From sequence record NZ_CP090008.1: DNA of 64,000 nt; one strand, given 5' to 3'. Both the position numbers and the translations under genes were made by a program. Positions 27,229 through 43,535 of this stretch are shown in pieces (position 1 is the stretch's first letter; every line of letters starts with the position of its first letter). The notes beneath the pieces were generated by a model that did not search any database, was not told where the DNA came from, and was given only the letters and a program-made list of their open reading frames with translations. This stretch comes from a plasmid.

Positions 27229-27311
27229 AAAAGAATAAGCTAACAAAATGTATCATTGTTAACTTATTCTTTTTATTATTCCTTTACATGGTAGAAGATG
27301 TTGAATGAGCG

Positions 27312-27707: not shown

Positions 27708-28174
27708 TTTTTTAGGAGCTGCCCAAAGTTGCTCGTAATCAGTAGGAAATCTTTTAAGTCTACGTTAAATGCGGCTATAATAGCAATCGAAGTCAGTACT
27801 ACGAGACTAGAAATCGTATTTAAAATAAAGGCTACAAAAAGTTTCGATAAGATTATTTGGTGGGCAGAACCTGGGAGTGTATTGGTTAGATAACCTTCTC
27901 TCCCAAAGACAGTCTTTGCAAAGCGTCTAATAATAAGGACTATTGTCGCTATATAAATGGCTCCCCATACAATAATAGTGGCAAAACACATCAGTGTGAA
28001 GAAAGCAAAAAAGAGTAGACTAGGTTCTTCGTTACTGTGTTCAAAGGTGAACATTAATTTGTGAAGCATTAAGCCCAAGGGAATAGAGAGTAGGATGGCA
28101 ATACCATAGATGCCAAAATACCACTTGCGGACTGATTGTAATTCAGACTTAACTAAATTCCAAAACATGCTCAT
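27704..28174 (-). CDS. ABC transporter permease-like membrane protein
   Basis: 4 TM helices; follows ABC ATPase. Confidence 0.5.
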   Translation of the reverse strand: MSMFWNLVKSELQSVRKWYFGIYGIAILLSIPLGLMLHKLMFTFEHSNEEPSLLFFAFFTLMCFATIIVWGAIYIATIVLIIRRFAKTVFGREGYLTNTLPGSAHQIILSKLFVAFILNTISSLVVLTSIAIIAAFNVDLKDFLLITSNFGQLLKK

Positions 28175-28275
28175 ACCTCCTAATTGTGGAACATCTCTCT
28201 GAAGAGCTTGTCAATAGACTTGCCATGGGCTTGACGGATATTATCGGCATCTCCTTGAAGTTCAATCTGACCGTA

Positions 28276-28878
28276 TTATAAGAAGACAACTTCATCTAGG
28301 ACAGATTCAATATCTGCAATCAAATGAGTTGAAATAATAACAGAAGCATCTTCAGAGTATTGGTTGATGATAGTTTTAAGGATATAGTCACGTGATGCAG
28401 GATCGACCCCGCCAATAGGTTCATCAAGGAGATAGAGTTTAGCCTCACGACTCATAACCAAAATCAACTGAACTTTTTCTTTGTTACCTTTTGAAAGGTC
28501 TTTAAGGCGCAAATCAGGCTGGAGCTTTAGATCCTCCAAGAGATGTAAGGCAAGAGGATAGCGGAAGTCAGCGTAAAAATCTTGGAAGAAATCCAAGTAG
28601 TACTGGATTGTCTTACTTTCATCTAAATAGGTTGTGTCAGGCAAATAAGCCACTTGCGCCTTAGTGATAGGTGATGGCTGAAATCCATTAATGGTCACTA
28701 AGCCAGAAGTCGGTTGAAGGAGACCGTTCAAAATTTTGATTAGAGTTGTTTTCCCACTACCGTTTGGACCTAAAAGGCCAACAATTTTTCCTGACGGGAT
28801 GGACATGGTCACATCTCTAAGGGCTGGAACACCATTATAAGTTTTGGTGAGATTTGTTAAAGTTACAATATCAGTCAT
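28276..28878 (-). CDS. ABC transporter ATP-binding protein
   Basis: Walker A GPNGSGKTT, signature/Walker B LLDEP; start taken at MTDIVTL (28878). Confidence 0.75.
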   Translation of the reverse strand: MTDIVTLTNLTKTYNGVPALRDVTMSIPSGKIVGLLGPNGSGKTTLIKILNGLLQPTSGLVTINGFQPSPITKAQVAYLPDTTYLDESKTIQYYLDFFQDFYADFRYPLALHLLEDLKLQPDLRLKDLSKGNKEKVQLILVMSREAKLYLLDEPIGGVDPASRDYILKTIINQYSEDASVIISTHLIADIESVLDEVVFL

Positions 28879-28882
28879 CAGT

Positions 28883-29287
28883 CTATAACTCCTTTCCTGT
28901 TTGTTCAATGTAGTCGGTGATAATGGTTTTAATTTTAGGTGAACTAAAGCCAATAGTCATCATTTCAGTGACAAAGTTTTTTATAAGGTTTTGAGCAATT
29001 TCGTGTCGTTTTTGATCAATGAGTTTCTCATCTTCAGTAACGAAGCGACCAGACGTACGAGCAGAATAGACCAAACCCTCTTTTTCAAGTTCTTGGAAGG
29101 CTCTTTGCACAGTGTTTGGATTGACACCGGCTTCCTGAGCGAGTTCCCGAACGGGTAAGAGTTGTTGCCCTATGCTTAATTCTTTGGAAGCAATTTTAAG
29201 TTTGACACGATAGGCGATTTGAAGATAAATGGGTGATTTTTCATCAAATGTCCAAGCCATAAGAGACTCCTTTCTAGGAAATATCAT
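28883..29287 (-). CDS. GntR-family transcriptional regulator (YtrA-like)
   Basis: HTH: LPVRELAQEAGVNPNTVQRAFQELEKEGLV. Confidence 0.75.
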   Translation of the reverse strand: MIFPRKESLMAWTFDEKSPIYLQIAYRVKLKIASKELSIGQQLLPVRELAQEAGVNPNTVQRAFQELEKEGLVYSARTSGRFVTEDEKLIDQKRHEIAQNLIKNFVTEMMTIGFSSPKIKTIITDYIEQTGKEL

Positions 29288-29869: not shown

Positions 29870-30337
29870 ATGGCAGAAAATATAAAAAACTGGGTTAATG
29901 TGTGTGTAGTAAAAAACAATAAAATTCTTTTACTTAATAGACAACATGATGATTTTCCTGGATGGATTCCTCCAGGTGGGAAAGTAGAGTTTCCTGAAAG
30001 TTTCTTTGAAGCTGCTATTCGAGAATTAAAAGAGGAGACTGGTCTAACTGCTTTAAATTTAAAATTAAAAGGTATTTCTGGATTTACCAATACTATTGGT
30101 AACGAAAGGTTCGTATACTACGATTTTTTGTGTACAAATTTTTCTGGAGATATTCGTGCTTCTAGAGAAGGAGAACCTAAATGGTGGAATTTAGAAGATA
30201 TTGAAGAAATATCTATGCAAGAAGAAATTAAAAATAGGTTGCCCCTTTACTTACGTGAAGGAAGTTTTGAAAGTATTAATTACTGGGATGAGTCAAAAAA
30301 ATGTATTAGCCATAATAAAACAATTTTGTTTGATTAA
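29870..30337 (+). CDS. NUDIX hydrolase (MutT-like)
   Basis: Nudix box GGKVEFPESFFEAAIRELKEETGL. Confidence 0.75.
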   Translation: MAENIKNWVNVCVVKNNKILLLNRQHDDFPGWIPPGGKVEFPESFFEAAIRELKEETGLTALNLKLKGISGFTNTIGNERFVYYDFLCTNFSGDIRASREGEPKWWNLEDIEEISMQEEIKNRLPLYLREGSFESINYWDESKKCISHNKTILFD

Positions 30338-30463: not shown

Positions 30464-30995
30464 GGCTCTATAATTTCTGTAGTAGGTAAAACCACTGTAG
30501 GAATTATGGAGTCTATGTTTTTGTAGAAAAAAAGCCCCATAAGACCTATAATGAAAAAGTGGCCAAACCCTCATTAGAAAGAATCTTATGGAACAATTAA
30601 ATTTTATCACAAACATACTTGGAATTAATGACAAAAATATTTTTATCTTAGATTATCTTGATGCTGGAACGCATAAAGAAGTCATTGCTAAGCTCGATTA
30701 TCCTGCCTCTAAATGTCTCAACTGTCAAGGACAAATGGCTAAATATGACTTTCAAAAAGAATCCAAAATCCCCTACCTCGAATGTGCTGGCTACAAGACT
30801 CTCATTCGATTGAGAAAACGCCGTTTCCGCTGTAAAGACTGTGGAAAACATACTAAGATTAGTAGTGAAGAAATCTCCGATGGGAGAGAGTACTCACTAC
30901 TTTTTCTTTATGTTAAAGTAGTGGTGTCTTGTAAAGTCGTAGGGCTCTATGGCGCTAGACGTCGCTTGACAAACTGGCAAGACACCTTGTTTTAG
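30464..30995 (+). mobile_element. ISL3-family IS left end + truncated transposase (N-terminal 90 aa only)
   Basis: GGCTCTATAATTTCTGTAGTAGGTAAAAC terminal repeat; ORF 30588 N-terminus MEQLNFITNILGI...CLNCQGQMAKYDFQKESKIPYLECAGYKTLIRLRKRRFRCKDCGK is the ISL3 zinc-finger N-domain, then frame decays. Confidence 0.7.
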
Positions 30996-31091: not shown

Positions 31092-32015
31092 ATGCGTGCA
31101 GTATTTGGAATTGATGTAAGTAAAACAAGCTCTGAGGTGGCCATTTTAGTCAACAGTAAGAAGATTAATGGCTACACCATACTCAATGATGCCATTGGGT
31201 TCAATCGCCTGTTGGGCGACTTGAAAACTGTTCATAAACCAACTTACGTGCAGGAAGAAGTTTATCAACACCTGCGTGATTTAAGCCGTTTCTATCAAAA
31301 TATGACAGAAGATCTTGTTCAAACTAAAAACTGTCTGCACAAGGTCCTACAAGTCACCTTTCCTGAATTGGAAAATCTATTATCCACCCCTACTGGAGAG
31401 CAATATTGGAACTTAGTGATGGCTTTTCCATGCAAAGAGTTTATATTAAGCTTATCTCAAAGTAACTTGTGTGAGATTATCCGTCAATCTACCTCCAAAC
31501 GCATCTCTGAAAAGCGTATTGCTTACCTGACTGATAAACTTATAAAACTTGCTAAACAATCTCTTTGTGCGGTCAAGAAAACCTCTCCAATGCTTGAAGA
31601 GGTTCGTTACTATGCTCAAGAATTGCTTCGTCTTTCTGAACGCAGACAAGTTGTCTTAAACGACATGGTAGCTCTAGCTCAGCCTTTACCAGAATATGAC
31701 ATCTTACGGTCAATTCCTGACATCGCAGAAATCACAGCGACATCTATCATTGGCGAATTGGAAGATATTCGTCGCTTTCAGTCTACCAATCAAATCAACG
31801 CTTTTATTGGCATTGACCTGAGACACTATGAATCTGGGAACTTTCTCGCCAAGGAACACATCACTAAACGAGGTAATCCCTATGTCAGAAAAATCTTGTT
31901 CAAGTGCATTCACAACATCGCTTCAGCTAGTCATACCAATCCTTGTCATATCCCAGATTTCTATGAGAAATGTATTACCTCATTACGCATAACAAACTTT
32001 ACGATTACTCTTTGA
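31092..32015 (+). mobile_element. IS110-family transposase (possibly C-terminally truncated, 307 aa)
   Basis: MRAVFGIDVSK N-terminus and DEDD-type N-domain typical of IS110; shorter than usual ~400 aa. Confidence 0.65.
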
Positions 32016-32253
32016 CCCAAAATCGATAAGGTTGTCTATGCCGTATTATTGTAGCACCTTGTTTCAAACAAATACCAGATGAGGTGTTTTTTAGCATGCC
32101 CTTTTATGGATCAAAAAGTGTTAAAAATAAGACAGTAACCTCAGAATAGCTACTGTCTTATCTCTTTTTTTACTTAAAGCCTTGATAGACTTGACAAATG
32201 GTAGAAAAGAGTCGTTTTTCTTTGTGAAACATAGGGAACACCTCACAACTCTT

Positions 32254-32289
32254 CTTATCTCTATTCTTATCTCTATTCTTATCTCTATT
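32254..32289. repeat. 12-bp tandem repeat x3 (CTTATCTCTATT)
   Basis: Direct reading. Confidence 0.8.
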
Positions 32290-32542
32290 ATACGACTTTA
32301 CACAAAGAAAAGCCCTTGGAAACTTTTGTTCCAAGGACTTTGTCTTCAATCTGAGGCCTTGATGATCAATGCTTTTTATATTGCTCAAAAGTCATTCAAC
32401 TTTTATAAGCAAATAATATACTCCACTTATTGTGAGAGTGTGCATGAATATTTAAAGGATTAGAATGTGACATATGTGGGACTTGTTTTGAAATTAATAA
32501 AATATGATAATTAATACAAGATAACTGAAGGAAGAAAAAATA

Positions 32543-32773
32543 ATGAATGGGATAGGTTATATACTTAGGAGGTTACGGAAAGAAAAAGGGATTACACAGA
32601 GAGTTATCTATACAAATCTTTGTAGTCGAAAGCAACTTTCTAGGATAGAAAATAATACATCTTTCCCATCAGTATATCTTTTATATCATATTTGCCAAAG
32701 ATTAGAAGTGACAATAGATGAAGTTATCAAATTAACATTAGAAGGAGAAAGTAATGGCAATCAGCACAAGTGA
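32543..32773 (+). CDS. short XRE/Rgg-like HTH transcriptional regulator (76 aa)
   Basis: ILRRLRKEKGITQRVIYTNLCSRKQLSRIENNTSFPSVYLLYHICQRLEV; overlaps start of QueA-like gene. Confidence 0.6.
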   Translation: MNGIGYILRRLRKEKGITQRVIYTNLCSRKQLSRIENNTSFPSVYLLYHICQRLEVTIDEVIKLTLEGESNGNQHK

Positions 32774-33800
32774 ATTAAAGTATGAATTACCGGTCGAATT
32801 AGCTGCTCGACAACCTATAGAACTGACATCGAGTAGAAGGGATGGAACTAGATTAATAGTAGGTTTTAAAAACTCTCAAAAAATCATTGATGATGTTTTT
32901 ACAAATTTTACTAACTATATAAATTCAGGAGACTTACTTATTTTAAATAATAGTAAAACAATTTCACCAATTTTTTATGCATATTCCGATAAATATGGAG
33001 AGGTGAAATTTCATATTAAGACTAAGACTGATTTAGGATATGTATCATATATCAGAATTAGAGAAGATTTAAAAGATAAAATTATTGGTGAGAACTTTAT
33101 TGTAACTGATGAAATAGAAGTATCTGTAAATAAACGAACTGAAGGCGATGAATTTTTGTGTAGTTTTAATTGTTCTGAAGAGGATTTGTATAACTATTTA
33201 TTAATTAATGGTGAGGCAGTGAAATCAATTTATACAAAGAAAAAATGGTCAATTGATTATTATCAAAATGAAGTTGCAAATAAATTAGGATCTTTTGAAA
33301 ACCCAGCAGCGAGTCGGCACTTTACTAATAAAATGTTAAATATTTTACGTGAAAAAGGGGTAAGAATCGCGTATATTACTTTAAATTGTGCTTCGGTTGA
33401 TACAAAAATTTTTGAGGATATTATAGAGAAACATGTTGTTTTTAAGGAATACTATGAGATCCCCGAAGAAACAGTAAGATTAATTCAAGAAACAAAATTA
33501 AACGGTAATAAGGTGTTTGCGGTTGGAACTACAGTTATTAGGACTTTAGAAAGCTGTAATTATGATAATTTCAGAATTACTTCCCCTTTAAAAAATTATA
33601 CTGATTTATATATTCATCCTGGACATAATTTTAAAGTAACAGATGCTTTAATTACAAATTTTCATGGATCAATGACTAGTAGACTTGCTCTTTCTGCAGC
33701 TGCAATTGGTGTGGATAATATTATGAATTTATACAAACATGCAATCGAAGAAAAATATTTATTTTATGAGTTTGGGGATGCGAATTTATTATTCATGTAG
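32754..33800 (+). CDS. QueA-like S-adenosylmethionine:ribosyltransferase-isomerase paralog
   Basis: Collinear with QueA: YELPVELAARQP..., GDLLILNNSKTI, VGTTVIRTLES (QueA VGTTSTRTLE), ITNFHGSMTSRLALSAA, YKHAIEEKYLFYEFGDANLLF (QueA YxHAxEExYRFFSFGDAMLI). Confidence 0.75.
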   Translation: MAISTSELKYELPVELAARQPIELTSSRRDGTRLIVGFKNSQKIIDDVFTNFTNYINSGDLLILNNSKTISPIFYAYSDKYGEVKFHIKTKTDLGYVSYIRIREDLKDKIIGENFIVTDEIEVSVNKRTEGDEFLCSFNCSEEDLYNYLLINGEAVKSIYTKKKWSIDYYQNEVANKLGSFENPAASRHFTNKMLNILREKGVRIAYITLNCASVDTKIFEDIIEKHVVFKEYYEIPEETVRLIQETKLNGNKVFAVGTTVIRTLESCNYDNFRITSPLKNYTDLYIHPGHNFKVTDALITNFHGSMTSRLALSAAAIGVDNIMNLYKHAIEEKYLFYEFGDANLLFM

Positions 33801-33831: not shown

Positions 33832-33906
33832 ATGAAGAAGTTGACATTGAAAGAACTGGTTGATAAAAATAATGATTTGCTCTCACGTTGCACAATCAAT
33901 AAATAA
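33832..33906 (+). CDS. candidate 24-aa precursor peptide MKKLTLKELVDKNNDLLSRCTINK
   Basis: Strong RBS AAAGGGGGTG 6 nt upstream; located between QueA-like and PqqD-like genes. Confidence 0.4.
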   Translation: MKKLTLKELVDKNNDLLSRCTINK

Positions 33907-33972: not shown

Positions 33973-34239
33973 ATGCTTTATAAAGTTAATCGAGACGTAG
34001 AAATAACAGAAGAAAATGGATATCAAGTTATTCATAGATATTCAGATGATTCGTATTTTTCCTTAGAAAATGATACTTTGTTTATTTTATTGAGTTATAA
34101 TGGTTTAAATAAATTGCAAGATATTGCAAAAAGCTTTGCAAAATATAAAGGAATTTCTAATAACAAAGCTTTAGAATACGTAGAACAAATCCAAAAATAT
34201 TTAGTTTCAGAAGGAATAATTGTCATAGATGAGAACTAA
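33973..34239 (+). CDS. PqqD-like (RiPP recognition element) protein
   Basis: 88 aa; ...FSLENDTLFILLSYNGLNKLQDIAKSFAKYKGISNNKALEYVEQIQKYLVSEGIIV matches PqqD pattern. Confidence 0.55.
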   Translation: MLYKVNRDVEITEENGYQVIHRYSDDSYFSLENDTLFILLSYNGLNKLQDIAKSFAKYKGISNNKALEYVEQIQKYLVSEGIIVIDEN

Positions 34240-35095
34240 ATCTAAGTTATTTAATAATATAGCAGAAGATAATATAGACTCCCTTTATGTACAATTGTGT
34301 AATTTAATATATAAAAATGGTAAAGTTGTAATTTCGAGAGGCATGGAGGTAAAAGAATTAATTGGGGTTAACTTAATTTTAACTAATCCCAAAAGACGCT
34401 TTTTAGAAAATGCCAACAGAAAATTAAAACTATACTACGCTATTGGAGAATTCATATGGTATATGAGGGGGAGTAATAGTTTAGAGGAAATTCAGTATTA
34501 TGCCCCTAGCATGTCACAGTTTTCTGATGATGGTTCTATTCTTCAAGGAGCTTATGGACCTAAGATTGTAACTCAAATCGATAAATTGATTACACTGCTA
34601 AGACATGACAAGGGGACTCGTAGGGCAGTTTTACCTATTTATTCTGCGAGTGAATTAGGTAAAGATAGTAAAGATATCCCATGCACACTCACATTAGAGT
34701 TTTTGATTCGAGCTAATAAGCTTCATCTCATTGTCAATATGAGATCAAACGACATATTTTTGGGGCTTCCGTATGATATTTTTTCTTTCACAATGATTCA
34801 GGAATACATTGCAAATAAGATAGGTCTAAATTTAGGATATTATTATCATAATATCGGAAGCTTACATGTCTATAAGAAACATTTTGATAGAATAAAAGAA
34901 ATATCAACTATGAATATACATAAAACATCAGAATTCAATAACTCAAATTTAATCTTTAAAAATTTAAGTGATTTGTTAAACATTGAAAAATCAATTAGAA
35001 ACGGAAGTCCATACAATATGAGCAAGGAATTACTTAATAATTCGGATTTCAATAGAATAAAGATTGAACTAGAGAAATATAAGGATAGTAGGTGA
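34229..35095 (+). CDS. thymidylate synthase-fold pyrimidine-nucleotide hydroxymethylase/methylase-like enzyme
   Basis: LKLYYAIGEFIWYMRGS (ThyA WKGVLEELLWFLKGS), RRAVLPIYSASELGKDSKDIPCTLTLEFLIRANKLHLIVNMRSNDIFLGLPYDIFSFTMIQEYIA (ThyA RRIIMSAWNP...PPCHALCQFYV...[25 protein letters not shown]); catalytic Cys retained. Confidence 0.7.
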   Translation: MRTKSKLFNNIAEDNIDSLYVQLCNLIYKNGKVVISRGMEVKELIGVNLILTNPKRRFLENANRKLKLYYAIGEFIWYMRGSNSLEEIQYYAPSMSQFSDDGSILQGAYGPKIVTQIDKLITLLRHDKGTRRAVLPIYSASELGKDSKDIPCTLTLEFLIRANKLHLIVNMRSNDIFLGLPYDIFSFTMIQEYIANKIGLNLGYYYHNIGSLHVYKKHFDRIKEISTMNIHKTSEFNNSNLIFKNLSDLLNIEKSIRNGSPYNMSKELLNNSDFNRIKIELEKYKDSR

Positions 35096-35098
35096 GAA

Positions 35099-35683
35099 AT
35101 GTCTATCGGAAAACTAATCTATATATGTGGAATTGATGGTTCTGGGAAAACAACATTAGCCAAGAATCTTTCTAATCATTTTGGTGATAAATCAATATTT
35201 TTGCCATTAAATAATTCAAAAAGATTCATTAATGAAATTGATAGTTTCTGTAAAGAGTATAATACAGACAGGTGGAGTATATTTTCAGAATATTTTAGGG
35301 GAAATATTTGGGCGTTAGAGCTAGTTTATTTTTGTGAAAATATTTTAAAACCCGCTCTAAAAAAGTACGAATATGTATTCATCGATAGATATTATATATG
35401 TAATGCTATATATTCTAATTTATTAGTCACTAATAAGTTGGTTAATAGACTGCATGAATTACTGATTAAACCAGACATGGTTTTTTATATCAATATTAAT
35501 CCAGAGATCGCTTTTGAAAGAATTTTAAAAAGGAATGAGCAAAAAACGCCGAAAGAAAGTTTGGACAATTTAAAATTAGCTTCTGATTTATATTCAAGAT
35601 ATCTTGAAGATAAAAGTTATTATGAATTAGACGGAGAGAAGTCAGAGAATCAAATTTTAAAGTCTGTATTACAAATTATTTAG
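35099..35683 (+). CDS. dTMP-kinase-like P-loop nucleotide kinase
   Basis: LIYICGIDGSGKTTLAKNL (Tmk Walker A GIDGxGKTT); 194 aa. Confidence 0.65.
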   Translation: MSIGKLIYICGIDGSGKTTLAKNLSNHFGDKSIFLPLNNSKRFINEIDSFCKEYNTDRWSIFSEYFRGNIWALELVYFCENILKPALKKYEYVFIDRYYICNAIYSNLLVTNKLVNRLHELLIKPDMVFYININPEIAFERILKRNEQKTPKESLDNLKLASDLYSRYLEDKSYYELDGEKSENQILKSVLQII

Positions 35684-35699
35684 AATTTAGGATTAAGAT

Positions 35700-36689
35700 A
35701 TGAAATTTGAAACAGTACTAGATTTTTATATATACTATTTGGAAATCCTTCTGAAAAGGGAAAAAAATCATACTAAAGTTGTCCCATTTTCGGAGATAGC
35801 TAATAAAGTCGAGGTTTTCAACAATAGTATTGAGATTGTTCAAGGAACTCATAGTAATATGCTATTTAGTAGATCTGAATTTAATTATAATGTAGTGCAT
35901 ATGCTATATTCTTTGAGTGGGAGAACAGATTCATATATATTAAAAAAATATAAAAGTTCATATTGGCGATATTCGAATGAGGGATTTTATGTCAATACAA
36001 TTGGGGAGCGGTTATATACTTTATATGGTAATCAAATTAAACGTTGTGTAAATTTTTTAAAAGAAAATATTTATACGTCAGATGCCGTTTGTTTTATGAA
36101 ATCTTTTGAAAATGAAAATATTGAATGTACTCTAAATCTTCATTTTTATTATAGAGATAATCGATTAAATTTGGAGTTATCATATAAAGGTTCTAGTTTA
36201 TTAGAGTATACTAACTCCGATCTATTTATTTATTCTTCTTTACTTTCATTAATGAGCCATTGGTTAGATGTGGAACCTGGAAGTTTATTTTTAAAATGTC
36301 ACTCGATTTTTATTTCAGAAAATGATCTAGAAAGAGCTAAGAAACTATTAGAAATTGGTAAATCGTTGAGAAATATTGGTATTTCAATGAATCATAGGTT
36401 TTCATCCAGTATTGAAACTTATCGTTCAGAATTTTCTGAAGCTATCAATAGAATAATTGCTTGGGATACTGTTGATATTACTCAGAGAGTTTCTGAGGAA
36501 TTAGAGTATATAAAAAAGTATTTTACTCCATATATTCAAGACTTGTTACTTATTCTTTTAGCGGATAGATTTCATCAAACTGATAGTGATTATAAAATAG
36601 TATTGAGTCAGCTCTCAGATAGGTCAATTGGGAAATTTAAGGAAACAATTGATAAAATACAATTTAATAAATTATTAGAGGTAATTTAA
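35700..36689 (+). CDS. second thymidylate synthase-fold paralog
   Basis: SDAVCFMKSFENENIECTLNLHFYYRDNRLNLELSYKGSSLLEYTNSDLFIYSSLLSLMSHWLDVEPGSLFLKCHSIFI aligns to ThyA C-terminal half incl. catalytic Cys position. Confidence 0.55.
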   Translation: MKFETVLDFYIYYLEILLKREKNHTKVVPFSEIANKVEVFNNSIEIVQGTHSNMLFSRSEFNYNVVHMLYSLSGRTDSYILKKYKSSYWRYSNEGFYVNTIGERLYTLYGNQIKRCVNFLKENIYTSDAVCFMKSFENENIECTLNLHFYYRDNRLNLELSYKGSSLLEYTNSDLFIYSSLLSLMSHWLDVEPGSLFLKCHSIFISENDLERAKKLLEIGKSLRNIGISMNHRFSSSIETYRSEFSEAINRIIAWDTVDITQRVSEELEYIKKYFTPYIQDLLLILLADRFHQTDSDYKIVLSQLSDRSIGKFKETIDKIQFNKLLEVI

Positions 36690-36691: not shown

Positions 36692-36952
36692 TTGATAATT
36701 AAAAAGAGTCTTGCTGCTATACAACGTTCAGTATCAGGAAATGAATTTTTGTTAAATTTACTTACTGATAGGACTTTTCTCCTTAATGAAGTTTCTCTCT
36801 ATATTTGGAGTAATCTTGGAGAATGTAGTACTGAGGAAATAGCTGCAAATTTATCTAAAATGTATAATGAAAAAACCGAGATAATTCAAAATGATGTAGA
36901 TGAAGTTATTAATATTTTACAGGAAGAAGGGTTAATTGAAATTCTGAATTAA
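36692..36952 (+). CDS. PqqD-family RiPP recognition element protein (TTG start)
   Basis: LLNEVSLYIWSNLGECSTEEIAANLSKMYNEKTEIIQNDVDEVINILQEEGLIE = classic PqqD pattern. Confidence 0.65.
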   Translation: MIIKKSLAAIQRSVSGNEFLLNLLTDRTFLLNEVSLYIWSNLGECSTEEIAANLSKMYNEKTEIIQNDVDEVINILQEEGLIEILN

Positions 36953-36970: not shown

Positions 36971-37657
36971 ATGGCTGAAATTATTTATAGTATGATTGCT
37001 AATGAGATTTCAGAGCAATTGTCAGAGGATAATATTGTAATTTGGAAATCTGAGATGGATGGACTGGGGACCTCATTATCTGATATCGATGCATATTGTA
37101 TCTGCAAGGAAGAAAAAGTAATAAAAAGCTTTGTATATGAAGGGACACCGGTTGATATTGAATATGTGACTTCGGAAAGGCTAAAAGCTAAAATTAATAA
37201 AATTTATCAATACACTAATCATGGTGATATTTATAAAGGATTAGATGAAGATTTGAAATTATTTTACAGATTACAAAGAGGAGAGAAATCAGCTAAATTT
37301 TCATTGATTGGAGTTGAAGTTCCCACACTTGAGGAAATTTCTAAGATTGCAGCACAATATTATTATGAATTATTTTTAGGTCTGTATGAAGATGCTTATA
37401 AAATGTACCATGGGAAAAATAAATTAGATTCTTTTGTCCTTTCCCTAGAGACATTACAAATGTCTATTGCAACTTATTTAGCTAGGGTAGGGAAACCACA
37501 ATTTAAGAAAAAATGGCTATTTAAATATTTTAATATAGTAGCTAACAATTCCCTATATAAAGATTTAATTACACAATTAGAATCAACACAGGAATATGAT
37601 TTAATGGAATTCACAGAGAGTATACTAGTCAATTCAAAAAAGCTTCTAGAAATTTAG
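36971..37657 (+). CDS. Pol-beta superfamily nucleotidyltransferase
   Basis: MDGLGTSLSDIDAYCI (G[SG]x9-13Dx[DE] motif). Confidence 0.55.
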   Translation: MAEIIYSMIANEISEQLSEDNIVIWKSEMDGLGTSLSDIDAYCICKEEKVIKSFVYEGTPVDIEYVTSERLKAKINKIYQYTNHGDIYKGLDEDLKLFYRLQRGEKSAKFSLIGVEVPTLEEISKIAAQYYYELFLGLYEDAYKMYHGKNKLDSFVLSLETLQMSIATYLARVGKPQFKKKWLFKYFNIVANNSLYKDLITQLESTQEYDLMEFTESILVNSKKLLEI

Positions 37658-37857
37658 TATATTGAAAGGAGGTGAGATTATGGTCTATAAAAAACCTATT
37701 GTTGAAGATATTAAATTAAGTGCCTCTGCATTACTTGTATAATATCTTAGTATAAGTCGGAGAGTTGAACAGAATAATTATGTAGTTAATATGACTAACA
37801 GGAAGTATTACTACAAAAAATTCTGTTCAACTTTCCATTTTTTATAGAGTAATAAAA

Positions 37858-38664
37858 ATGAGCAAAATTAGGTATATCATAATAAAGATACTATTACATC
37901 AATTTTACGGAATCAAAAATATAAAATTAATAAATTGTGTTAAAAATATGAATAAAGTTTATATTTTTGAAGATATCAACAAAAAGGTCAAAATGGTTTT
38001 AAAAGTAGAATCTGAAAGAAGAATTAATTCGATCAAGTACCAACATATATTTTCCAATTATGGGATATCGCCAAAAATAATTAAAACTAGAACAGGAAGA
38101 CAGTATATAAAGATTTATAGATTGGTAATATTTGTACAAGAGTATGTAACATCTAGTAAAAGAAAGGTCACTTCAACAGAGATTGTGGGATTTTTAAAAT
38201 ATTTTTACGGAAAAATGGATGAAATAAGAGAATATTTACCCGAAGTTTTGACTACTTATCCATTATATAAGCAAGGCGCATTAAGTAAATGGTTTTATGT
38301 AGTCCATGGTGATTTACGTCCACAAAATATTATCATTACCAGGGATAGTTTTAGCGTGATTGATTTTGAGTATTTAAGTCTAGGAATTCGAGAAACTGAA
38401 ATTCTCAAGTTAATTATAATAATTTGTAAATATCAAAGTAATTTGATTGAATCGCTATATTCTAAATTCTTAGAATCAGACGTAATAGAAATGCATATAG
38501 AGGAGGCGATAAGGGTTCTTTTGTATGATCTTCTTAAATCAAATTTTCCTGAAAAGGTCAAGAATAATATTCCAAAGAATTATTTTTTAGAAATAACTTC
38601 TGAAAGGGAGGCATTAATAAACTTTTGCCATACATATTTAAAAAGAAAGGAATCCCAAAAATGA
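37858..38664 (+). CDS. APH/choline-kinase-like phosphotransferase
   Basis: FYVVHGDLRPQNIIITRDSFSVIDFEY (HGDxxxxN ... IDFE catalytic/Mg motifs). Confidence 0.6.
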   Translation: MSKIRYIIIKILLHQFYGIKNIKLINCVKNMNKVYIFEDINKKVKMVLKVESERRINSIKYQHIFSNYGISPKIIKTRTGRQYIKIYRLVIFVQEYVTSSKRKVTSTEIVGFLKYFYGKMDEIREYLPEVLTTYPLYKQGALSKWFYVVHGDLRPQNIIITRDSFSVIDFEYLSLGIRETEILKLIIIICKYQSNLIESLYSKFLESDVIEMHIEEAIRVLLYDLLKSNFPEKVKNNIPKNYFLEITSEREALINFCHTYLKRKESQK

Positions 38665-39710
38665 TTTCAACTGAGATTGAGAAAAAATATCTACTTACAA
38701 AAGAAGAATTTCTATCCTTTAGTAGAGATTTTTTTAAAAGTGCAAAAATTCAAGAACAAACTAATTATTATTTTGATAGTTTAGATTTTTCACTATTAAA
38801 GAGAGGAATGACTCTTAGAATTCGAGAAAAATATGATAAATATATTTTAACATTAAAGAAAAAGAAATCAGTCAAAATAATTGTAGAATCGGAAGAAATT
38901 AATTTCGTAATTACACCGCAAGACTTTCAAGAGGCAATCTTAACTGGAGAATTTCCCCAAAATGTAAAGAAAGAACTAGACTCATTAATTCCCGAAAAGA
39001 AAATTTTTTATCTAGGTTTTCTAAAAACTAAAAGATATGTAATCGAAAAAAATTCTTTGATATATTGTTTAGATAAAAATAATTATTTTGGAAAGGAGGA
39101 TTTTGAATTAGAAATTGAAGGAACAGAGAAAGGACTAAAAGAAATTGAAATTGATATTTCCAAGAGCAAATCTAATAATGTTGGAAAATATGCTAGATTT
39201 ATTGATGAATTATTGAAAGGAAACGGTAATTATCTGATTAAAACTCAAGTGTCTGCAATTATTCTTAATAAAAGTAGCGATAAAGTTTGTCTTATTAAGA
39301 AGGATATTCCAACCTCAAGTATACATAATATGTGGCTTCCACCCGGTGGACATATCGATTTTGGAGAAAATTTAATAGATGCTGTCAAAAGAGAGGTCTA
39401 TGAAGAGACAGGGTTAGAAGTTACGGTTTCAAAATTATCTAGCATTGTATCGTTTCATCAAAAAAAGGCAGAGCAAGCTATTTGTTTCTTTTATGTCGCA
39501 GAATCCCAAAATATTAATGAAATAAATGTCACTGAGCCAGGCATTGAATGCAGGTGGTTTAATTTAAAAGATATACTAAGTGGAGATGATATAAATATGA
39601 CATCCTATCATAAGCTTATAATATCCGACTTGCAAGATAACAGGATTTTATATTTGAATTTAAAAAAATCTGATAATCAATATAATATTGAAAATATAGT
39701 TCATATTTAA
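38661..39710 (+). CDS. CYTH (triphosphate tunnel) - NUDIX fusion protein
   Basis: N-terminus MISTEIEKKYLL (CYTH EIE[RK]KFL start); C-terminal Nudix box GGHIDFGENLIDAVKREVYEETGL; ATGA overlap with kinase gene. Confidence 0.6.
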   Translation: MISTEIEKKYLLTKEEFLSFSRDFFKSAKIQEQTNYYFDSLDFSLLKRGMTLRIREKYDKYILTLKKKKSVKIIVESEEINFVITPQDFQEAILTGEFPQNVKKELDSLIPEKKIFYLGFLKTKRYVIEKNSLIYCLDKNNYFGKEDFELEIEGTEKGLKEIEIDISKSKSNNVGKYARFIDELLKGNGNYLIKTQVSAIILNKSSDKVCLIKKDIPTSSIHNMWLPPGGHIDFGENLIDAVKREVYEETGLEVTVSKLSSIVSFHQKKAEQAICFFYVAESQNINEINVTEPGIECRWFNLKDILSGDDINMTSYHKLIISDLQDNRILYLNLKKSDNQYNIENIVHI

Positions 39711-39894
39711 AAGATTAAAACTAGTTATATATAAAATCTAGGTATAACTGTTCCACTGAATTCCATAGATATAATTAGCTTCTTAAATGTAGGGCTATTT
39801 TATAGCTTGAATATACAATATAAGTGCACAATAAAAACTCATAAGATTTTCTAGTAAAATAGAATTGAACGAACTAGTTACGAAAGGAAATCTT

Positions 39895-40881
39895 ATGAGC
39901 TACCATCATTTTACTATAGATGAACGTGAAAGCATTCTCGTTTACCGTACGCATGACCTAAATTTTTCTCAAATTGCTAAATCACTTCATCGTCATTAGT
40001 CTAGCAGTAGTGGTGAGTGGCAACGACATCTTAAAGAAGGAAGCTATTCTCCAAGTCATGCATAGGAATCTTATCATATGGCTAAATCACACTGTGGGCG
40101 GAAACGTATGCTTGAAATAGATCACAATTTAAGCAATACCGTCAAACATCTATTTCTCGATTACCAATGGTCTCCCGAAGAAATAGAAGGTCGGTTGCGA
40201 TTAGAGTATGGAAAAACTGTTATTAGTTATCAAACAATCTATAGAGCCATTTACAGAGGGCATTTTGATGATAACTCACTATCTCATGGTGCTCGTGGTG
40301 TCATTCGAAAGCTCCGTCATCGTGGTAAAACACGTCATACAAAAGGTTATGTCGAAAATAGAGGGAAAATCTCTATATCTCATACAATTCACGAAAGACT
40401 AGAAGATGCTAATAACCGAACTAGAATAGGAGATTGGGAAGCCGATACTGTTGCAGGTAAAACTAGAAAAGCTTGTTTAGTGACTCTAACTGACCGTTAT
40501 TCTCGTTTTCTAAAAATCCAGAAGGTAGCTGTCAAGAAAAGCAAGTTGGTAATAGAAGCTATGGTAAAAATGTTAGAGCCCTTGACGAAGCATACAATAA
40601 CTCCTGATAGAGGGAAAGAATTCACGTATCATCAGAAATTGAGCGATCAATTGAACATTGAAGTCTATTTTCCTGACCCTCATGCTCCATGGCAACGAGG
40701 AACCAATGAGAACACGAAAGGATTACTTTGAGAGTATTTTCCAAAGGGTAGTGATCTAACATTGGTTGATGATCAGACTATTCAGCTGTGGGAGAACAAA
40801 CTTAATAATAGGCCACGAAAATGTCTTAACTGGAAAACACCTTATGAAGTATTCTATGGGGAAAGTATGCACTTAATTTGA
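39895..40881 (+). pseudogene. IS30-family transposase, disrupted by stop codons/frameshift
   Basis: MSYHHFTIDERESILVYR...(stop)...RIGDWEADTVAGK...TPDRGKEF...HAPWQRGTNENTKGLL(stop)EYFPKG; reading frame broken at least twice. Confidence 0.7.
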
Positions 40882-40953: not shown

Positions 40954-41745
40954 ATGCTACTAGCTGTAATAAGAAGAAACTGGCAGATGTATAAAAGATA
41001 TTTTCCAGTAACATTGTTTTTTAATAGGGGTTTGGATGCTGGTTTTACTCTATTAGGTTTGTGGTTAATAGCGAATTTTTTATTCGCAAATAACATTAAA
41101 GTTGGTAATGCTATAGAGTACTCAGATTACTTCAGTTATGCTGCAGTAGGATTGGTTTATTATAATGCATCAATTGCTATTCTGATGAATGTAGGGAGAG
41201 CATTAATAACAGAAGTTAGAGAAGGCACTCTTGAAAGTACATTAGTATCTCCTTTTAACATTGTCTATTATTACTTAGGAATCTTTTTAGAGCAGTTTGT
41301 AAGGACCTTTTTGGAATTTCTATTTTCTTATATAATTGCTATTTTGCTCGGTGCAGATTTACAACAAATTACATTACTGATTTTATTGCTTGGCTTCTTA
41401 TATGTTTCGATTTGCTCTTTTTCGATGGGGGTATTCCTATCAAATATAATGTTGTGGTTTAGGGATACATTCATTAGTCAAAATACAATTTTTCTGATAA
41501 TCTTCTTGGTCTCAGGCATTACCTTTCCAATAGAATTATTGCCAAAATTTTTAAGGGTGATTAGTAATTTTATACCGTTAACATATTCTATTAAGGCAAT
41601 AAGAACCTTATATTTGGAAACCCAGACGAGTATGATCAATCTTAGCTTTATACAAGGTTTACTACTTTCAATATTATACTTCTTGATAGGGATTCTGGTA
41701 TATAATAAGGTTGAGAAAAAAATTGTAAGTGATGTTTCATATTAA
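40954..41745 (+). CDS. ABC-2 type exporter permease
   Basis: 263 aa, 6 TM helices. Confidence 0.6.
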   Translation: MLLAVIRRNWQMYKRYFPVTLFFNRGLDAGFTLLGLWLIANFLFANNIKVGNAIEYSDYFSYAAVGLVYYNASIAILMNVGRALITEVREGTLESTLVSPFNIVYYYLGIFLEQFVRTFLEFLFSYIIAILLGADLQQITLLILLLGFLYVSICSFSMGVFLSNIMLWFRDTFISQNTIFLIIFLVSGITFPIELLPKFLRVISNFIPLTYSIKAIRTLYLETQTSMINLSFIQGLLLSILYFLIGILVYNKVEKKIVSDVSY

Positions 41746-41763
41746 GTGAAGGAGAGAAATAAA

Positions 41764-42744
41764 ATGTATGAAGTATTCAATATTTCAAAAGATTATGTAA
41801 CAAAAAAGAGAATAGGATTGTTTAAACATAAAAAAGAAGTTAAAAAAGCTATACAAGATGTAAATTTATCAGTCCCTAGAGGTAAAATTATTGGTGTTTT
41901 AGGAGAAAATGGTGCAGGGAAAACAACTTTAATAAAGATGATGACAACACTTCTATCAAGTGATACTGGAAAAATTTTGATAGATGGAGTTGACATTAAT
42001 CAAAATGTAAAAAATACTCGAAAAAGGATCAACATCATTAGTGGAGGAGAAAAAAATCTCTATTGGAGATTGACTGCAGTTGAAAATTTACTCTATTTTG
42101 CTTCTCTGTACGGTCTTCCAAAGAAAGAGGCATTACCTAAGATAGATAATTTATTGAATGAATTAGGGCTTTGGGAAAGTAAGGATACTCCTGTAGAAAA
42201 ATTTTCAAAGGGAATGAAGCAACGCTTACAAATTGCTAAAGGACTAATCAATGATCCAGAATATTTATTTCTTGATGAACCTACACTAGGTCTAGATGTC
42301 AGTATTGCTTACGAGTTGAGAAAAAAATTAAAAGAGATAGCGGCTAAGCGGAATACAGGAATTTTGTTAACAACTCACTACATGGCTGAAGCAGATGAAT
42401 TATGTGATTATATTTATTTTTTAAAACATGGTAAAGTAATTGTGTCAGGTACCAAAACACAGGTTTTTGAACAATTACAGATGACACCAGAGCTTCATGT
42501 CATCCTTTCAGATAGGGATGATGAAAATTCTTCAAAGCTGGCTCAAGTTAGTCGTTTATTTCCATGTATAATTTTGGAAAAATTTGGTAGTAGTATATTG
42601 TTGAAATTCTCTCTTTCAGAATATAATGTGCAGGATATAATAAAAAGCCTATATAATAATCAAATTGAAATTAAGGAAATAAGATATAATGAGCCTACTC
42701 TTGAAAATGTTATTCTAAATTTAGGAGGAAAGAGCTTAAAATGA
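41764..42744 (+). CDS. ABC transporter ATP-binding protein
   Basis: Walker A GENGAGKTT, LSGG-like KFSKGMKQRL, Walker B LFLDEP. Confidence 0.75.
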   Translation: MYEVFNISKDYVTKKRIGLFKHKKEVKKAIQDVNLSVPRGKIIGVLGENGAGKTTLIKMMTTLLSSDTGKILIDGVDINQNVKNTRKRINIISGGEKNLYWRLTAVENLLYFASLYGLPKKEALPKIDNLLNELGLWESKDTPVEKFSKGMKQRLQIAKGLINDPEYLFLDEPTLGLDVSIAYELRKKLKEIAAKRNTGILLTTHYMAEADELCDYIYFLKHGKVIVSGTKTQVFEQLQMTPELHVILSDRDDENSSKLAQVSRLFPCIILEKFGSSILLKFSLSEYNVQDIIKSLYNNQIEIKEIRYNEPTLENVILNLGGKSLK

Positions 42745-43535
42745 ATTCGATAATAGTTAGTACTTTTAAGAGTGAATTTAGAAGAACATTTTTAAATGAC
42801 AGTATTAATAAATTTTATTTTTTTTCAATGATACTTTGGCCAATTATTTCTCTAATTCAAATTTTTTACAATATGCAAGCCTTTCCAATTACGGATATAC
42901 AAATAGCATCTCTAAGATATGAAGACCAATTAATTTATTTTATATTTATTGGTTATTGTGTTTACATCATTTTTTCAAATGCTGTTCAGAGTGCATGGAG
43001 GCTTGGTGGAGAACGATATCAAGGAACTCTTAGTCAAATTTTTATTGCTCCAATTAAAAAAAATCTATGGCTTTATGCACGTACCTTATCACTTATTTTA
43101 AGTAATTCATGGTTTTTTATCACTATTTTTATTATTGGAAATTTTGTCTATTCTGATGCTTATGAATATATTCTTGCGTCCACTTTTATTTTAGTTGTTG
43201 CATCCTGGATTTGGGCAAGTTTCTTAGGTAGTATTTGTATCAGTTTGAGAGATGCAACGGTAGTTTATGTATTATTGGAGAGCTCTCAAAATACTTTTAG
43301 TGGTGCTAAAGTTCCATTATCAAAATCACCTCGATTAATAAAAGTTATAGGGAGTTTATTTCCCATTAGCTACACAATTATTTATCTAAGAGATATACTT
43401 CTTTATAAAGAGATTATAAGTATAAGTGCTATTTGGTGCTTATGCATAAATATCTTTGTTATTTTATTAACGAAGATAGTGTTAGAAGTTGGAGAAAGAC
43501 ACATGAAAAAAGTGGGCAGTTTTGATTTATTTTGA
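42741..43535 (+). CDS. ABC-2 type exporter permease (second)
   Basis: 264 aa, 6 TM helices, ATGA overlap with ATPase gene. Confidence 0.6.
   Translation: MNSIIVSTFKSEFRRTFLNDSINKFYFFSMILWPIISLIQIFYNMQAFPITDIQIASLRYEDQLIYFIFIGYCVYIIFSNAVQSAWRLGGERYQGTLSQIFIAPIKKNLWLYARTLSLILSNSWFFITIFIIGNFVYSDAYEYILASTFILVVASWIWASFLGSICISLRDATVVYVLLESSQNTFSGAKVPLSKSPRLIKVIGSLFPISYTIIYLRDILLYKEIISISAIWCLCINIFVILLTKIVLEVGERHMKKVGSFDLF

Follow-up and report, generated by a model that had tools for sequence, protein, structure and literature searches.

Among enzymes of the thymidylate synthase (TS) fold, the base-specificity position is Asp in MilA, BcmA and the dCMP hydroxymethylase of phage T4 (T4 CH) and Asn in TS itself; moreover, sugar selectivity of MilA is set by Lys133 and Ala176, the A176S/K133R mutant switching to dCMP, and TS-family dimers share two Arg residues across subunits (PMC5175136). 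Among peptides made by the ribosome and modified after translation (RiPPs), the B1 proteins of lasso-peptide pathways, which are RiPP recognition elements (RREs), bind a YxxPxL motif (PMC10368454), and pseudomycoidin provides a precedent for a RiPP tailored by a kinase and a nucleotidyltransferase (PMC8498205). Here we describe a locus in which both kinds of components lie together. In a 64,000-nucleotide stretch of the plasmid record NZ_CP090008.1 (hereafter, the window), two TS-fold proteins, ThyA1 and ThyA2, and a kinase related to the dTMP kinase Tmk are encoded in a cluster of about 13 genes with two predicted RRE proteins, RRE1 and RRE2, two short peptides, pepA and pepB, a QueA paralog, a nucleotidyltransferase-like protein and a transporter (Table 1).

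The two TS-fold genes and the kinase gene are best read as the nucleotide-supply core of a conserved, mobile RiPP-like cluster. We consider it probable that the cluster as a whole encodes a RiPP-like pathway consuming a purpose-made hydroxymethyl-deoxycytidine (hm-dC) nucleotide, with the catalytic steps and the product proposed below. A protein family of the PqqD/RRE type, whose leader-binding members are a hallmark of RiPP pathways, is present (RRE2 by Pfam, RRE1 by profile comparison; Table 1).

ThyA1 and the adjacent kinase

A sequence-only reading of the window had picked out three open reading frames (ORFs), two TS-like ones and a kinase, and likened them to the phage pathways that supply hydroxymethylated pyrimidines. 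All three ORFs were confirmed on the plus strand, and the motifs quoted from them, DIPCT with Cys152 in ThyA1, NIECT with Cys143 in ThyA2 and GIDGSGKTT in the kinase, are indeed there. ThyA1 is a clear member of the TS superfamily (Pfam Thymidylat_synt, PF00303: E-value 1e-29, 103.8 bits, cut-off 24.3) and is not a housekeeping ThyA, with a best NCBIfam equivalog score of 81.7 bits versus a cut-off of 327. It is closer to MilA and the phage hydroxymethylase families than to housekeeping ThyA: it matches the phage hydroxymethylase family phrog_5131 at 2e-55, among solved structures its best match is MilA, a CMP 5-hydroxymethylase (4e-37), and phage pyrimidine hydroxymethylases, ViI-like ones included, are 31–43% identical to it.

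ThyA1 retains Cys152 as nucleophile, Glu74 as general base and the set of phosphate-binding arginines (Arg37, Arg131, Arg132, Arg172), as well as Ser173, Asp175, Asp183 and the sugar contacts His213 and Tyr215, and the active-site residues are invariant throughout the cluster-associated ThyA1 family. Asp183 occupies the base-specificity position, aligned to Asp186 of MilA and to Asn of the TS structure 6auj, and the sugar-selectivity positions, Arg131 and Ser173, are in the state of deoxy-specific enzymes. Because these three residues match the rules derived from MilA and T4 CH, the best prediction for ThyA1 is a dCMP hydroxymethylase. When metagenomes were scanned with the ThyA1 family alignment, mostly stand-alone or phage-like hydroxymethylases were retrieved.

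The kinase matches Thymidylate_kin (PF02223: 2e-22, 80 bits, cut-off 27), scores slightly below the cut-off of the equivalog TIGR00041 (81.3 versus 83.25 bits) and has 2plr as its best solved relative (2e-12). The P-loop, identical to that of a solved thymidylate kinase, and the DRY motif (IDRYY) are both present. Judging by these matches, it is a divergent dTMP-kinase paralog residing in a mobile cluster, with a predicted substrate. ThyA1 and the kinase co-occur in all clusters, the kinase gene being beside or near that of ThyA1 throughout, as expected of a hydroxymethylase with a cognate dNMP kinase. The phage-like logic of hydroxymethylase plus kinase thus held up, ThyA1 matching best the phage hydroxymethylase families and MilA, and it is complemented by a NUDIX or MazG pyrophosphatase gene, the equivalent of T4 dCTPase, in every cluster.

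ThyA2, a remodelled TS-fold protein

ThyA2 is 19% identical to ThyA1 and scores exactly at the Pfam Thymidylat_synt cut-off (24.3 bits). Its AlphaFold2 (AF2) model, built on a 20-sequence alignment, has a pLDDT of 88.8 and a pTM of 0.90, and in a Foldseek search the model matches MilA over its full length (about 340 columns, E-value 5e-15, query TM-score 0.72), better than any thymidylate synthase; hence the TS/MilA fold of ThyA2, modelled with high confidence, is real. The extension of about 100 residues that had been ascribed to its N-terminus does not exist: ThyA2 aligns with ThyA1 and MilA from residue 1, its N-terminal part having diverged beyond the reach of the Pfam profile. As for the long C-terminal tail, it exists, yet as the helical domain common to MilA and phrog_5131 and not as an addition.

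The residue comparison, in Escherichia coli TS numbering taken from the MilA paper and general knowledge, shows a very uneven pattern. The nucleophile Cys146 is kept as Cys143 (motif NIECT), and the base-reading position Asn177 is kept as Asp174. The catalytic general base Glu58 corresponds to His67, Arg21 to Glu32, Arg126′ and Arg127′ to Ser127 and Asp128, Arg166-Ser167-x-Asp169 to Lys163-Gly164-x-Ser166, and His207 and Tyr209 to Phe204 and Ser206, respectively. The comparison of cytosine- with uracil-specific residues, suggested in the sequence-only reading as a check, therefore gives the cytosine-type Asp, not Asn, in both proteins (Asp183 of ThyA1, Asp174 of ThyA2). The same reading had both proteins retaining the catalytic Cys and the surrounding fold signature, which holds in full for ThyA1; in ThyA2 the Cys and the fold persist (AF2 model, Foldseek match to MilA), but the residue-level signature is lost. 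The two are not equivalent hydroxymethylases, as ThyA2 lacks the residues binding the nucleotide phosphate and sugar.

A word-indexed search with ThyA2 returned three clusters, and an exhaustive HMMER search returned 18 ThyA2-like representatives at E ≤ 1e-10 among 1.84 billion proteins. The members of this small, rare subfamily are only 23–28% identical, yet the Cys and the base-reading Asp are invariant; most members keep the Glu and an R-A-x-D motif, its Ala as in MilA, and the equivalents of Arg21, Arg126′, Arg127′, His and Tyr are generally lost. Of the active site, the half that activates the base is thus conserved, and the half that contacts sugar and phosphate has been remodelled. ThyA2 of the window is the most degenerate member of the subfamily. 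Decay to a pseudogene is ruled out by the full-length ORFs and by purifying selection (dN/dS of 0.17 versus Streptococcus mitis), nor is ThyA2 simply another hydroxymethylase of the ordinary kind.

Two short peptides beside two PqqD-type proteins

The genes pepA and pepB, both passed over in the sequence-only reading, each lie beside a gene for a PqqD-type protein. RRE2 is a PqqD-family protein with weak matches to NCBIfam lasso_PqqD. RRE1 has no Pfam match and no BLASTP match to the PqqD gene of the cluster; a profile–profile comparison (hhalign) with the PqqD family of the cluster gave 95.5% probability and an E-value of 1.5e-8 over 75 columns, and the Geobacillus ortholog of RRE1 is annotated as “PqqD family protein.” The RRE proteins and the exporter that had been placed near the three genes are thus both present, as PqqD/RRE proteins and an ABC-2 transporter.

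Members of the pepA family are 21–51 amino acids (aa) long, are preceded by a strong ribosome-binding site (RBS) and always occupy the position between QueA and RRE1; syntenic copies were found in S. mitis, Lactobacillus iners, Geobacillus and the loci L014, L020 and L021. Their common feature is [LFM]-[SA]-x-Cys near the C-terminus, with invariant Cys. In Geobacillus, a YxxPxL-type leader is followed by three tandem [VA]F[SA]KCR repeats, which is the architecture of a multi-core precursor. The gene is under purifying selection (dN/dS of 0.14 versus S. mitis).

Members of the pepB family are 20–21 aa long, and all contain [YF]xxPx[ILV] with exactly 14 residues from Pro to the C-terminus (six lineages); the C-terminal residue varies (V, R, T, A, L, I). 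When 1.09 Mb of DNA was searched in six frames for this pattern combined with an RBS, it occurred only at the syntenic position of the cluster, apart from two chance matches lacking the RBS. The dN/dS of 0.19 again indicates purifying selection. If read in the register of a YxxPxL leader, pepB would have essentially the C-terminal residue alone beyond the “leader.” Both genes are unannotated in the RefSeq record of the Geobacillus plasmid pGeo12a, and some copies were called by metagenome gene callers. With their synteny, RBSs, conserved motifs and purifying selection, the two peptides are candidate RiPP precursors, whose modification is predicted.

The possibility that pepB is a streptococcal pheromone of the SHP/Rgg type was rejected: the regulator in most lineages is an XRE protein of 73–95 aa, not Rgg, and pepB tracks the PqqD–nucleotidyltransferase pair outside streptococci, including Geobacillus.

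Related clusters and mobility

The cluster was found in at least seven lineages, namely, Streptococcus salivarius, S. mitis/Gemella, L. iners, a Geobacillus plasmid and three uncultured lineages. The homologous loci are those of S. mitis OMI892 (L011) and a Gemella metagenome-assembled genome, L. iners, L014, L019/L020, L021/L022, the larger variant L015 and pGeo12a, and hidden Markov models of the cluster proteins detected the same gene set in all recovered loci: an XRE-type regulator, the QueA paralog, RRE1, ThyA2, an APH-fold kinase, ThyA1, Tmk, the PqqD protein, a nucleotidyltransferase-type protein of 220–257 aa, CYTH, one or two NUDIX genes and an ABC-2 transporter. A gene for a CPBP intramembrane protease is added in clusters outside streptococci and is absent in streptococci. 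The usual gene order is QueA–RRE1–ThyA2–APH–ThyA1–Tmk–PqqD–nucleotidyltransferase. Hence, the bracketing of the kinase by two TS-fold genes, on which the sequence-only reading had dwelt, is correct for the window and not for five other lineages, where the order is RRE1–ThyA2–APH–ThyA1–Tmk; it is a streptococcal rearrangement. The RRE1 and ThyA2 genes are adjacent and overlap in five lineages. The PqqD (RRE2) gene is always directly upstream of the nucleotidyltransferase gene, the two overlapping or abutting in all lineages.

The part of the window from 32 to 40 kb has a GC content of 27–30% compared with 35–41% in the flanks (GC profile). Proteins identical to those of the window were found in genomes of S. 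salivarius and Streptococcus intermedius and in hundreds of metagenome contigs, labelled “thymidylate synthase,” “hypothetical protein” or “S-adenosylmethionine:tRNA ribosyltransferase-isomerase”; such labels hide the cluster, and the annotation is corrected here. In S. salivarius, the locus is interrupted by insertion sequences (ISs): IS30 separates the biosynthetic genes from the exporter genes, and IS110 and ISL3 separate the NUDIX gene from the regulator. In the window the IS30 element consists of a 217-aa ORF and fragments, and it is intact (328–338 aa) on the otherwise identical contigs L002 and L003, the L003 copy having 338 aa. It is an insertion, because in the S. mitis cluster, which lacks IS30, the ABC genes directly adjoin CYTH–NUDIX. 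One copy of the cluster resides on the conjugative plasmid pGeo12a of Geobacillus thermodenitrificans T12 (L103). Given the low GC content, the flanking and interrupting ISs and the conjugative plasmid copy, the cluster is horizontally mobile.

Several loci depart from the common composition. The L. iners cluster (L017/L018) has a MazG gene, no detected CYTH or NUDIX gene and only a fragment of the ABC ATPase gene; a Fic gene and a type II Cas9 gene are found within a few kb of this cluster, which may be partly degenerate. The Geobacillus cluster also contains a pyridoxal phosphate (PLP)-dependent decarboxylase of the diaminopimelate (DAP)/ornithine type. The L015/L016 variant combines ThyA1, Tmk, QueA, PqqD and a ThyA2-like protein with NTP_transf_5, an ornithine/DAP decarboxylase, an acyl-CoA dehydrogenase, a carrier protein and an ATP-grasp enzyme, with no pepA or pepB in the part of the contig examined. 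Locus L024 (BNJS01001384.1), with QueA, ThyA2, Tmk, APH and CYTH in fragments, is either a pseudogenised cluster of the streptococcal type or a low-quality assembly. Finally, a human-gut metagenome contig (L029, 5694–14539) encodes ThyA1-like, APH-like and Tmk-like proteins together, with no RRE or peptide genes, alongside a short-chain dehydrogenase, an AMP-binding enzyme, a carrier protein, a double alpha/beta-hydrolase and two GT2 glycosyltransferases; apparently, natural-product pathways of other kinds also draw on the hydroxymethyl-pyrimidine module.

Other genes of the window

Table 1. Features of the cluster in the window and candidate precursor peptides at homologous loci
Feature	Locus	Position	Strand	Basis and remarks
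NUDIX hydrolase, stand-alone	window	29870–30337	+	Pfam NUDIX 1e-16
ISL3 fragment	window	30588–30995	+	Zn_ribbon_ISL3 (Pfam, identical contigs); insertion, not a functional part of the cluster
IS110-family transposase	window	31092–32015	+	DEDD_Tnp_IS110/Transposase_20 (Pfam, identical contigs); insertion, not a functional part of the cluster
XRE-family helix-turn-helix (HTH) regulator	window	32543–32773	+	Pfam HTH_19 8e-9, HTH_3 1e-7; end overlaps start of QueA paralog
QueA paralog (S-adenosylmethionine (SAM) ribosyltransferase-isomerase fold)	window	32754–33800	+	Pfam Queuosine_synth 1e-73
pepA, candidate precursor, 24 aa, MKKLTLKELVDKNNDLLSRCTINK	window	33832–33906	+	RBS GGGGGTGA; between QueA and RRE1
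RRE1, PqqD-like predicted peptide-binding protein, 88 aa	window	33973–34239	+	hhalign versus PqqD family of the cluster
ThyA1, predicted MilA/phage-type pyrimidine C5-hydroxymethylase, 288 aa	window	34229–35095	+	Pfam, phrog, MilA alignment
Tmk-like dNMP kinase (predicted), 194 aa	window	35099–35683	+	Pfam Thymidylate_kin
ThyA2, remodelled TS/MilA-fold protein (modelled), 329 aa	window	35700–36689	+	AF2 and Foldseek
RRE2, PqqD-family predicted peptide-binding protein	window	36692–36952	+	Pfam PqqD (PF05402) 2.4e-11
ANT(4′)/kanamycin-nucleotidyltransferase-like enzyme (predicted), 228 aa	window	36971–37657	+	AF2 and Foldseek
pepB, candidate precursor, 20 aa, MVYKKPIVEDIKLSASALLV	window	37680–37742	+	Strong RBS AAAGGAGGTGA; after nucleotidyltransferase gene
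APH-fold (protein-kinase-like) kinase	window	37858–38664	+	Pfam APH 1.3e-5, 25.5 bits versus cut-off 23.2
CYTH–NUDIX fusion	window	38661–39710	+	Pfam CYTH 3e-21, NUDIX 2e-15; triphosphate-tunnel domain and Nudix pyrophosphohydrolase, Nudix box intact; start taken from gene calls on identical contigs
IS30-family element, frameshifted	window	39865–40880	+	Pfam rve/HTH_38 on identical contigs
ABC-2 exporter or immunity transporter: permease, ATPase, permease	window	40954–43535	+	ABC2_membrane 3e-15, ABC_tran 2e-32, ABC2_membrane_3 2e-4
pepA	S. mitis			MKKLTLKELVNKASDLLACCNATK
pepA	L014			...LVFSSCGSK
pepA	L020			...VAFSKCGEMVS
pepA	L021			...VIFSNCSKLGL
pepA	L. iners			...EMSDCNKILCV
pepA, 51 aa	Geobacillus (L103, pGeo12a)	8402–8557		MVYTTPKLLIVGNLEEMSLFIQSSEGVFSKCRSDMAFAKCRADLAFSKCRG
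pepB	S. mitis			MAYKKPIVKDIKLSASTILR
pepB	L014			MKKYKKPSIKVLRINAACLVT
pepB	L020			MNKYVSPELKALKISAAKLVA
pepB	L021			MKVFIKPMINPVKMSSAMVIL
pepB	Geobacillus			MKKYEKPQVIVIKMPTAIVEI

The 228-aa protein encoded downstream of RRE2 produced noise only in Pfam and PDB sequence searches, both by itself and as a family profile. Its AF2 model (pLDDT 88, pTM 0.84) comprises a Pol-beta nucleotidyltransferase domain and a helical C-terminal domain, with Foldseek matches to the nucleotidyltransferase-like structure 3c18, ANT(4′) (6un8/1kny), LinB and AadA (E-values from 1e-5 to 1e-3, TM-score of about 0.5). Residues Asp38-x-Asp40, Asp62 and Glu64 are invariant, and the L021 ortholog bears weak Polbeta/NTP_transf_2 marks. 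The modelled fold and the DxD motif together point to a nucleotidyltransferase of the ANT(4′)/kanamycin-nucleotidyltransferase type.

The QueA paralog, found in every full cluster, aligns over its full length with Thermotoga maritima QueA (1vky, 3e-51) and conserves the C-terminal catalytic motifs; it falls under both NCBIfam QueA equivalog cut-offs (225.5 versus 324 and 215.4 versus 267.45). Every cluster has the APH-fold kinase, its gene mostly placed between those of ThyA2 and ThyA1. In L014, L019 and Geobacillus, separate genes encode CYTH and NUDIX; L011, L014 and L022 have a short HTH gene ahead of the cluster; and the ABC-2 trio recurs in L011, L014, L020, L021 and Geobacillus. The stand-alone NUDIX gene of the window, now separated by IS fragments, is assigned to the cluster because its product is 45–80% identical to those of cluster-associated NUDIX genes elsewhere (45% to the NUDIX protein closing the L021 cluster, 80% to the one encoded beside the HTH gene in S. 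mitis L011).

Promoter and terminator scans gave results that did not exceed those of shuffled controls. In the intergenic region between the IS110 transposase and the HTH regulator, at 32252–32289, there is a perfect 12-bp tandem repeat (TTCTTATCTCTA, 3.2 copies), with two terminator-like hairpins beside it (about 32123–32341). The wider neighbourhood (25797–29287 and 43966–44427) contains genes of the defence/toxin type: a CHAP-domain ORF, a 211-aa “Barnase-EndoU-ColicinE5/D-RelE like nuclease” (UniRef name), a truncated AbiEii toxin gene (131 aa) with a 156-aa partner upstream, a GntR regulator with an ABC ATPase and, on the far side, a DUF2326 gene.

Proposed pathway and alternatives

From the observed folds, residue patterns, synteny, conserved peptides, selection and mobility we infer a series of catalytic steps and the nature of the product, the nucleotide route being drawn from family membership and residue signatures. 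The NUDIX, CYTH–NUDIX or MazG pyrophosphatases would convert dCTP to dCMP, as T4 gp56 does; ThyA1 would hydroxymethylate dCMP at C5, as T4 gp42 and MilA do with their own substrates; the Tmk-like kinase would produce the diphosphate, and the host nucleoside diphosphate kinase the triphosphate. The APH-fold kinase may act on the nucleotide, perhaps activating the 5-CH2OH group. On the peptide side, the PqqD protein would bind pepB through YxxPx[ILV] and present it to the adjacent ANT(4′)-like nucleotidyltransferase, and RRE1 would bind the Cys-containing pepA and present it to ThyA2. Since ThyA2 keeps the Cys and the Asp and has lost the phosphate and sugar contacts, its probable substrate is a cytosine moiety in a setting that is non-canonical and possibly peptide-linked. 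The QueA paralog could add a SAM-derived ribosyl or cyclopentyl unit, and the CPBP protease, where present, and the ABC-2 transporter may process and export the product or confer immunity.

A more specific proposal is a new class of ribosomal products, in which peptides carry a covalently attached, purpose-made 5-hydroxymethyl-(deoxy)cytidine nucleotide, the repurposed TS-fold ThyA2, the ANT-like enzyme and the QueA paralog taking part. We regard it as doubtful, and any specific peptide–nucleotide linkage is much less likely than the general RiPP-like pathway with its hm-dC nucleotide. The APH-like kinase would activate the CH2OH group, the Cys of ThyA2, guided by RRE1, would regenerate a 5-methylene pyrimidine intermediate, and the invariant Cys of pepA would trap it as a peptide-S-CH2-cytosine thioether; the PqqD-guided ANT-like enzyme would link the same or another nucleotide to pepB, and the QueA paralog would add a queuosine-like cyclopentyl unit.

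Several observations weigh against the RiPP-like pathway. The substrate assignments are transferred from MilA, T4 CH and TS through three or four residues. The S. salivarius copy is split by ISs and has no CPBP protease, so that the locus may be poorly expressed there. No recognisable pepB is present at the L. iners locus; pepB has no invariant nucleophile, and the Cys of pepA is the one obvious conserved modification site. The trio on L029, encoded with neither peptides nor RREs, demonstrates that the nucleotide module alone does not imply a peptide product. Finally, ThyA2 of S. salivarius and S. mitis has also lost the equivalents of Glu, Arg166 and Asp169 that are kept by the wider subfamily, and the streptococcal protein may be non-catalytic.

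The last point leads to an alternative lying on another axis than the others, namely, that ThyA2 is a pseudoenzyme serving as a structural partner or peptide-docking scaffold, e.g., as a heterodimer partner of ThyA1 or an RRE platform. ThyA2 is barely detected by Pfam, the Glu is His67 in streptococci, and the four phosphate-binding arginines, the equivalent of Asp169, His and Tyr are all replaced, which makes this role plausible for the streptococcal protein, with more residues lost than in the rest of the subfamily. For ThyA2 in general we hold it to be possible rather than probable, as neither the nucleophilic Cys nor the cytosine-reading Asp varies, most members keep the Glu and the Arg and Asp of R-A-x-D, and the gene is under the purifying selection noted above; in a heterodimer, moreover, Ser127 and Asp128 of ThyA2 would replace the cross-subunit Arg pair and cripple ThyA1, judging by the TS and MilA structures (PMC5175136).

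Two further explanations concern the product. It may be a small molecule, namely, a nucleoside or pyrimidine antimetabolite akin to mildiomycin or bacimethrin, the peptides being disposable scaffolds (as for PQQ, mycofactocin or pearlin-type products) or regulators. The closest characterised relative of ThyA1, MilA, does come from a nucleoside-antibiotic pathway, that of mildiomycin, the non-peptide L029 contig couples the ThyA1–APH–Tmk trio to an adenylating enzyme, a carrier protein and glycosyltransferases, variant clusters are enlarged by a PLP decarboxylase, an acyl-CoA dehydrogenase, a carrier protein and an ATP-grasp enzyme, and pepB is nearly all leader with no variable core. We nevertheless find this explanation unlikely: Pfam and NCBIfam scans of the cluster revealed no MilB/BcmB-type N-glycosidase, the three repeated Cys cores of the Geobacillus precursor are typical of peptides that become the product, and genes for a CPBP protease and an ABC-2 transporter are typical of bacteriocin loci. 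Very unlikely, in our estimate, is nucleotide modification or depletion for DNA modification or anti-phage defence (5-hm-dC in host DNA, depletion of dCTP) with the PqqD-like proteins being generic winged-helix proteins. The order of pyrophosphatase, hydroxymethylase and dNMP kinase copies that of T4 and other phages, the cluster is mobile and has defence-type neighbours (AbiEii fragment, DUF2326), and there are weak PADLOC matches (Tmk to PDC-M51B, 3e-14; NUDIX to PDC-S07, 7e-11). However, the TS-fold proteins, the QueA-like protein, the RREs and the nucleotidyltransferase have no PADLOC match, no version of the cluster contains a DNA glycosyltransferase, polymerase, nuclease or phage structural gene, and two conserved RBS-bearing peptides, a triplicated core, RREs, an exporter and a CPBP protease would be left unexplained. 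In the sequence-only reading, DNA modification had been ranked behind a small molecule or a peptide conjugate, and this preference is strengthened by the two conserved peptide genes, each next to a PqqD-type protein, the threefold core in Geobacillus, the CPBP proteases, the ABC-2 exporters and the absence of phage genes and of a PADLOC system match.

A known anti-phage system was also sought in PADLOC-DB 2.0 and rejected, there being no system-level match and only generic Tmk, NUDIX and HTH domain matches.

Comparison with known systems

Each component of the cluster comes from a known superfamily, and both RRE-guided RiPP logic and hydroxymethylation logic of the phage/MilA type are known. 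The combination, i.e., two TS-fold proteins, one of them remodelled, Tmk and QueA paralogs, an ANT-like transferase, two RREs and two peptides, matches no RiPP class, nucleoside-antibiotic pathway, peptide–nucleotide antibiotic or defence system that we found described. The cluster is undescribed in the full-text literature searched for combinations of TS, QueA, PqqD, RRE, RiPP and peptide–nucleotide, subscription-only papers being outside the reach of the search, and no paper in that literature contains both “QueA” and “PqqD.” In this literature and to our knowledge, neither TS-fold proteins nor Tmk or QueA paralogs are known from any RiPP class; here they would be the class-defining enzymes. 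That the chemistry is of a categorically new kind is a real possibility.

If the proposed RiPP-like pathway is correct, S. salivarius, S. mitis, Gemella and L. iners, bacteria of the human mouth, gut and vagina, use the hydroxymethyl-cytosine recipe of phages in peptide natural-product chemistry, in a mobile pathway; TS-fold, Tmk-like and QueA-like enzymes join the enzymes of RiPP pathways, and ThyA2 is a natural case of a TS-fold protein re-tooled for a substrate other than a mononucleotide. A peptide–nucleotide antimicrobial or signalling molecule, possibly new, could then come from commensals already used as probiotics. Were the nucleotide indeed joined to the peptides, peptide modification by a TS-fold and by a QueA-fold enzyme would be seen here for the first time.

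Features common to ThyA1, MilA and T4 gp42 are the fold, the helical domain at the C-terminus, the Cys, the Glu, the Arg set, the His/Tyr pair and the cytosine-specifying Asp. ThyA1 differs from MilA in having Arg and Ser, the deoxy-type state also seen in T4 gp42, in place of Lys133 and Ala176, and its gene is chromosomal or plasmid-borne in a peptide cluster with no MilB-type glycosidase. ThyA2 shares the whole predicted fold with MilA and lacks its phosphate- and sugar-binding residues.

Similarly, the pathways of phage hypermodification (hm-dC in T4; derivatives of hydroxymethyl-deoxyuridine in ViI, M6 and SPO1) have in common with the cluster a nucleoside triphosphate pyrophosphatase, a TS-fold hydroxymethylase, a dNMP kinase and an extra kinase that possibly activates the hydroxymethyl group, the latter having the APH fold here and the P-loop fold in phage 5-HMUDK. 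Unlike them, the cluster lies on bacterial chromosomes or a conjugative plasmid with no phage context, DNA-acting transferases or glycosyltransferases, or polymerase, and it couples this chemistry to RRE proteins, precursor-like peptides and an exporter. The QueA paralog differs from QueA (tRNA preQ1-34) in its genetic setting, a mobile cluster of low GC content in which its gene is directly upstream of that of pepA in all lineages, and its acceptor is unlikely to be tRNA.

Lasso RiPPs with discrete B1 proteins (paeninodin, pseudomycoidin) resemble the cluster in stand-alone PqqD-type RREs, in a YxxPxL-type motif (pepB, Geobacillus pepA) and in the presence of a kinase, a nucleotidyltransferase and an ABC exporter; the kinase of the cluster has the APH fold, not the HPr-kinase-like one. 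A lasso-peptide cluster as such was rejected, as neither an Asn-synthetase-like cyclase (C) nor a transglutaminase-like B2 peptidase is encoded in the window or in the homologous clusters.

In the microcin C pathway, an adenylyltransferase of the ThiF/MccB type acts on the C-terminal Asn of the peptide. A cluster of this kind was likewise rejected, with no ThiF/MccB-type adenylyltransferase domain present and the C-termini of pepB being variable. Like microcin C, the cluster has a ribosomal peptide that is very short, keeps its length and may be linked to a nucleotide and exported; unlike microcin C, it has a Pol-beta/ANT-like candidate transferase, two peptides and two RREs, and its nucleotide would be a pyrimidine made for the purpose.

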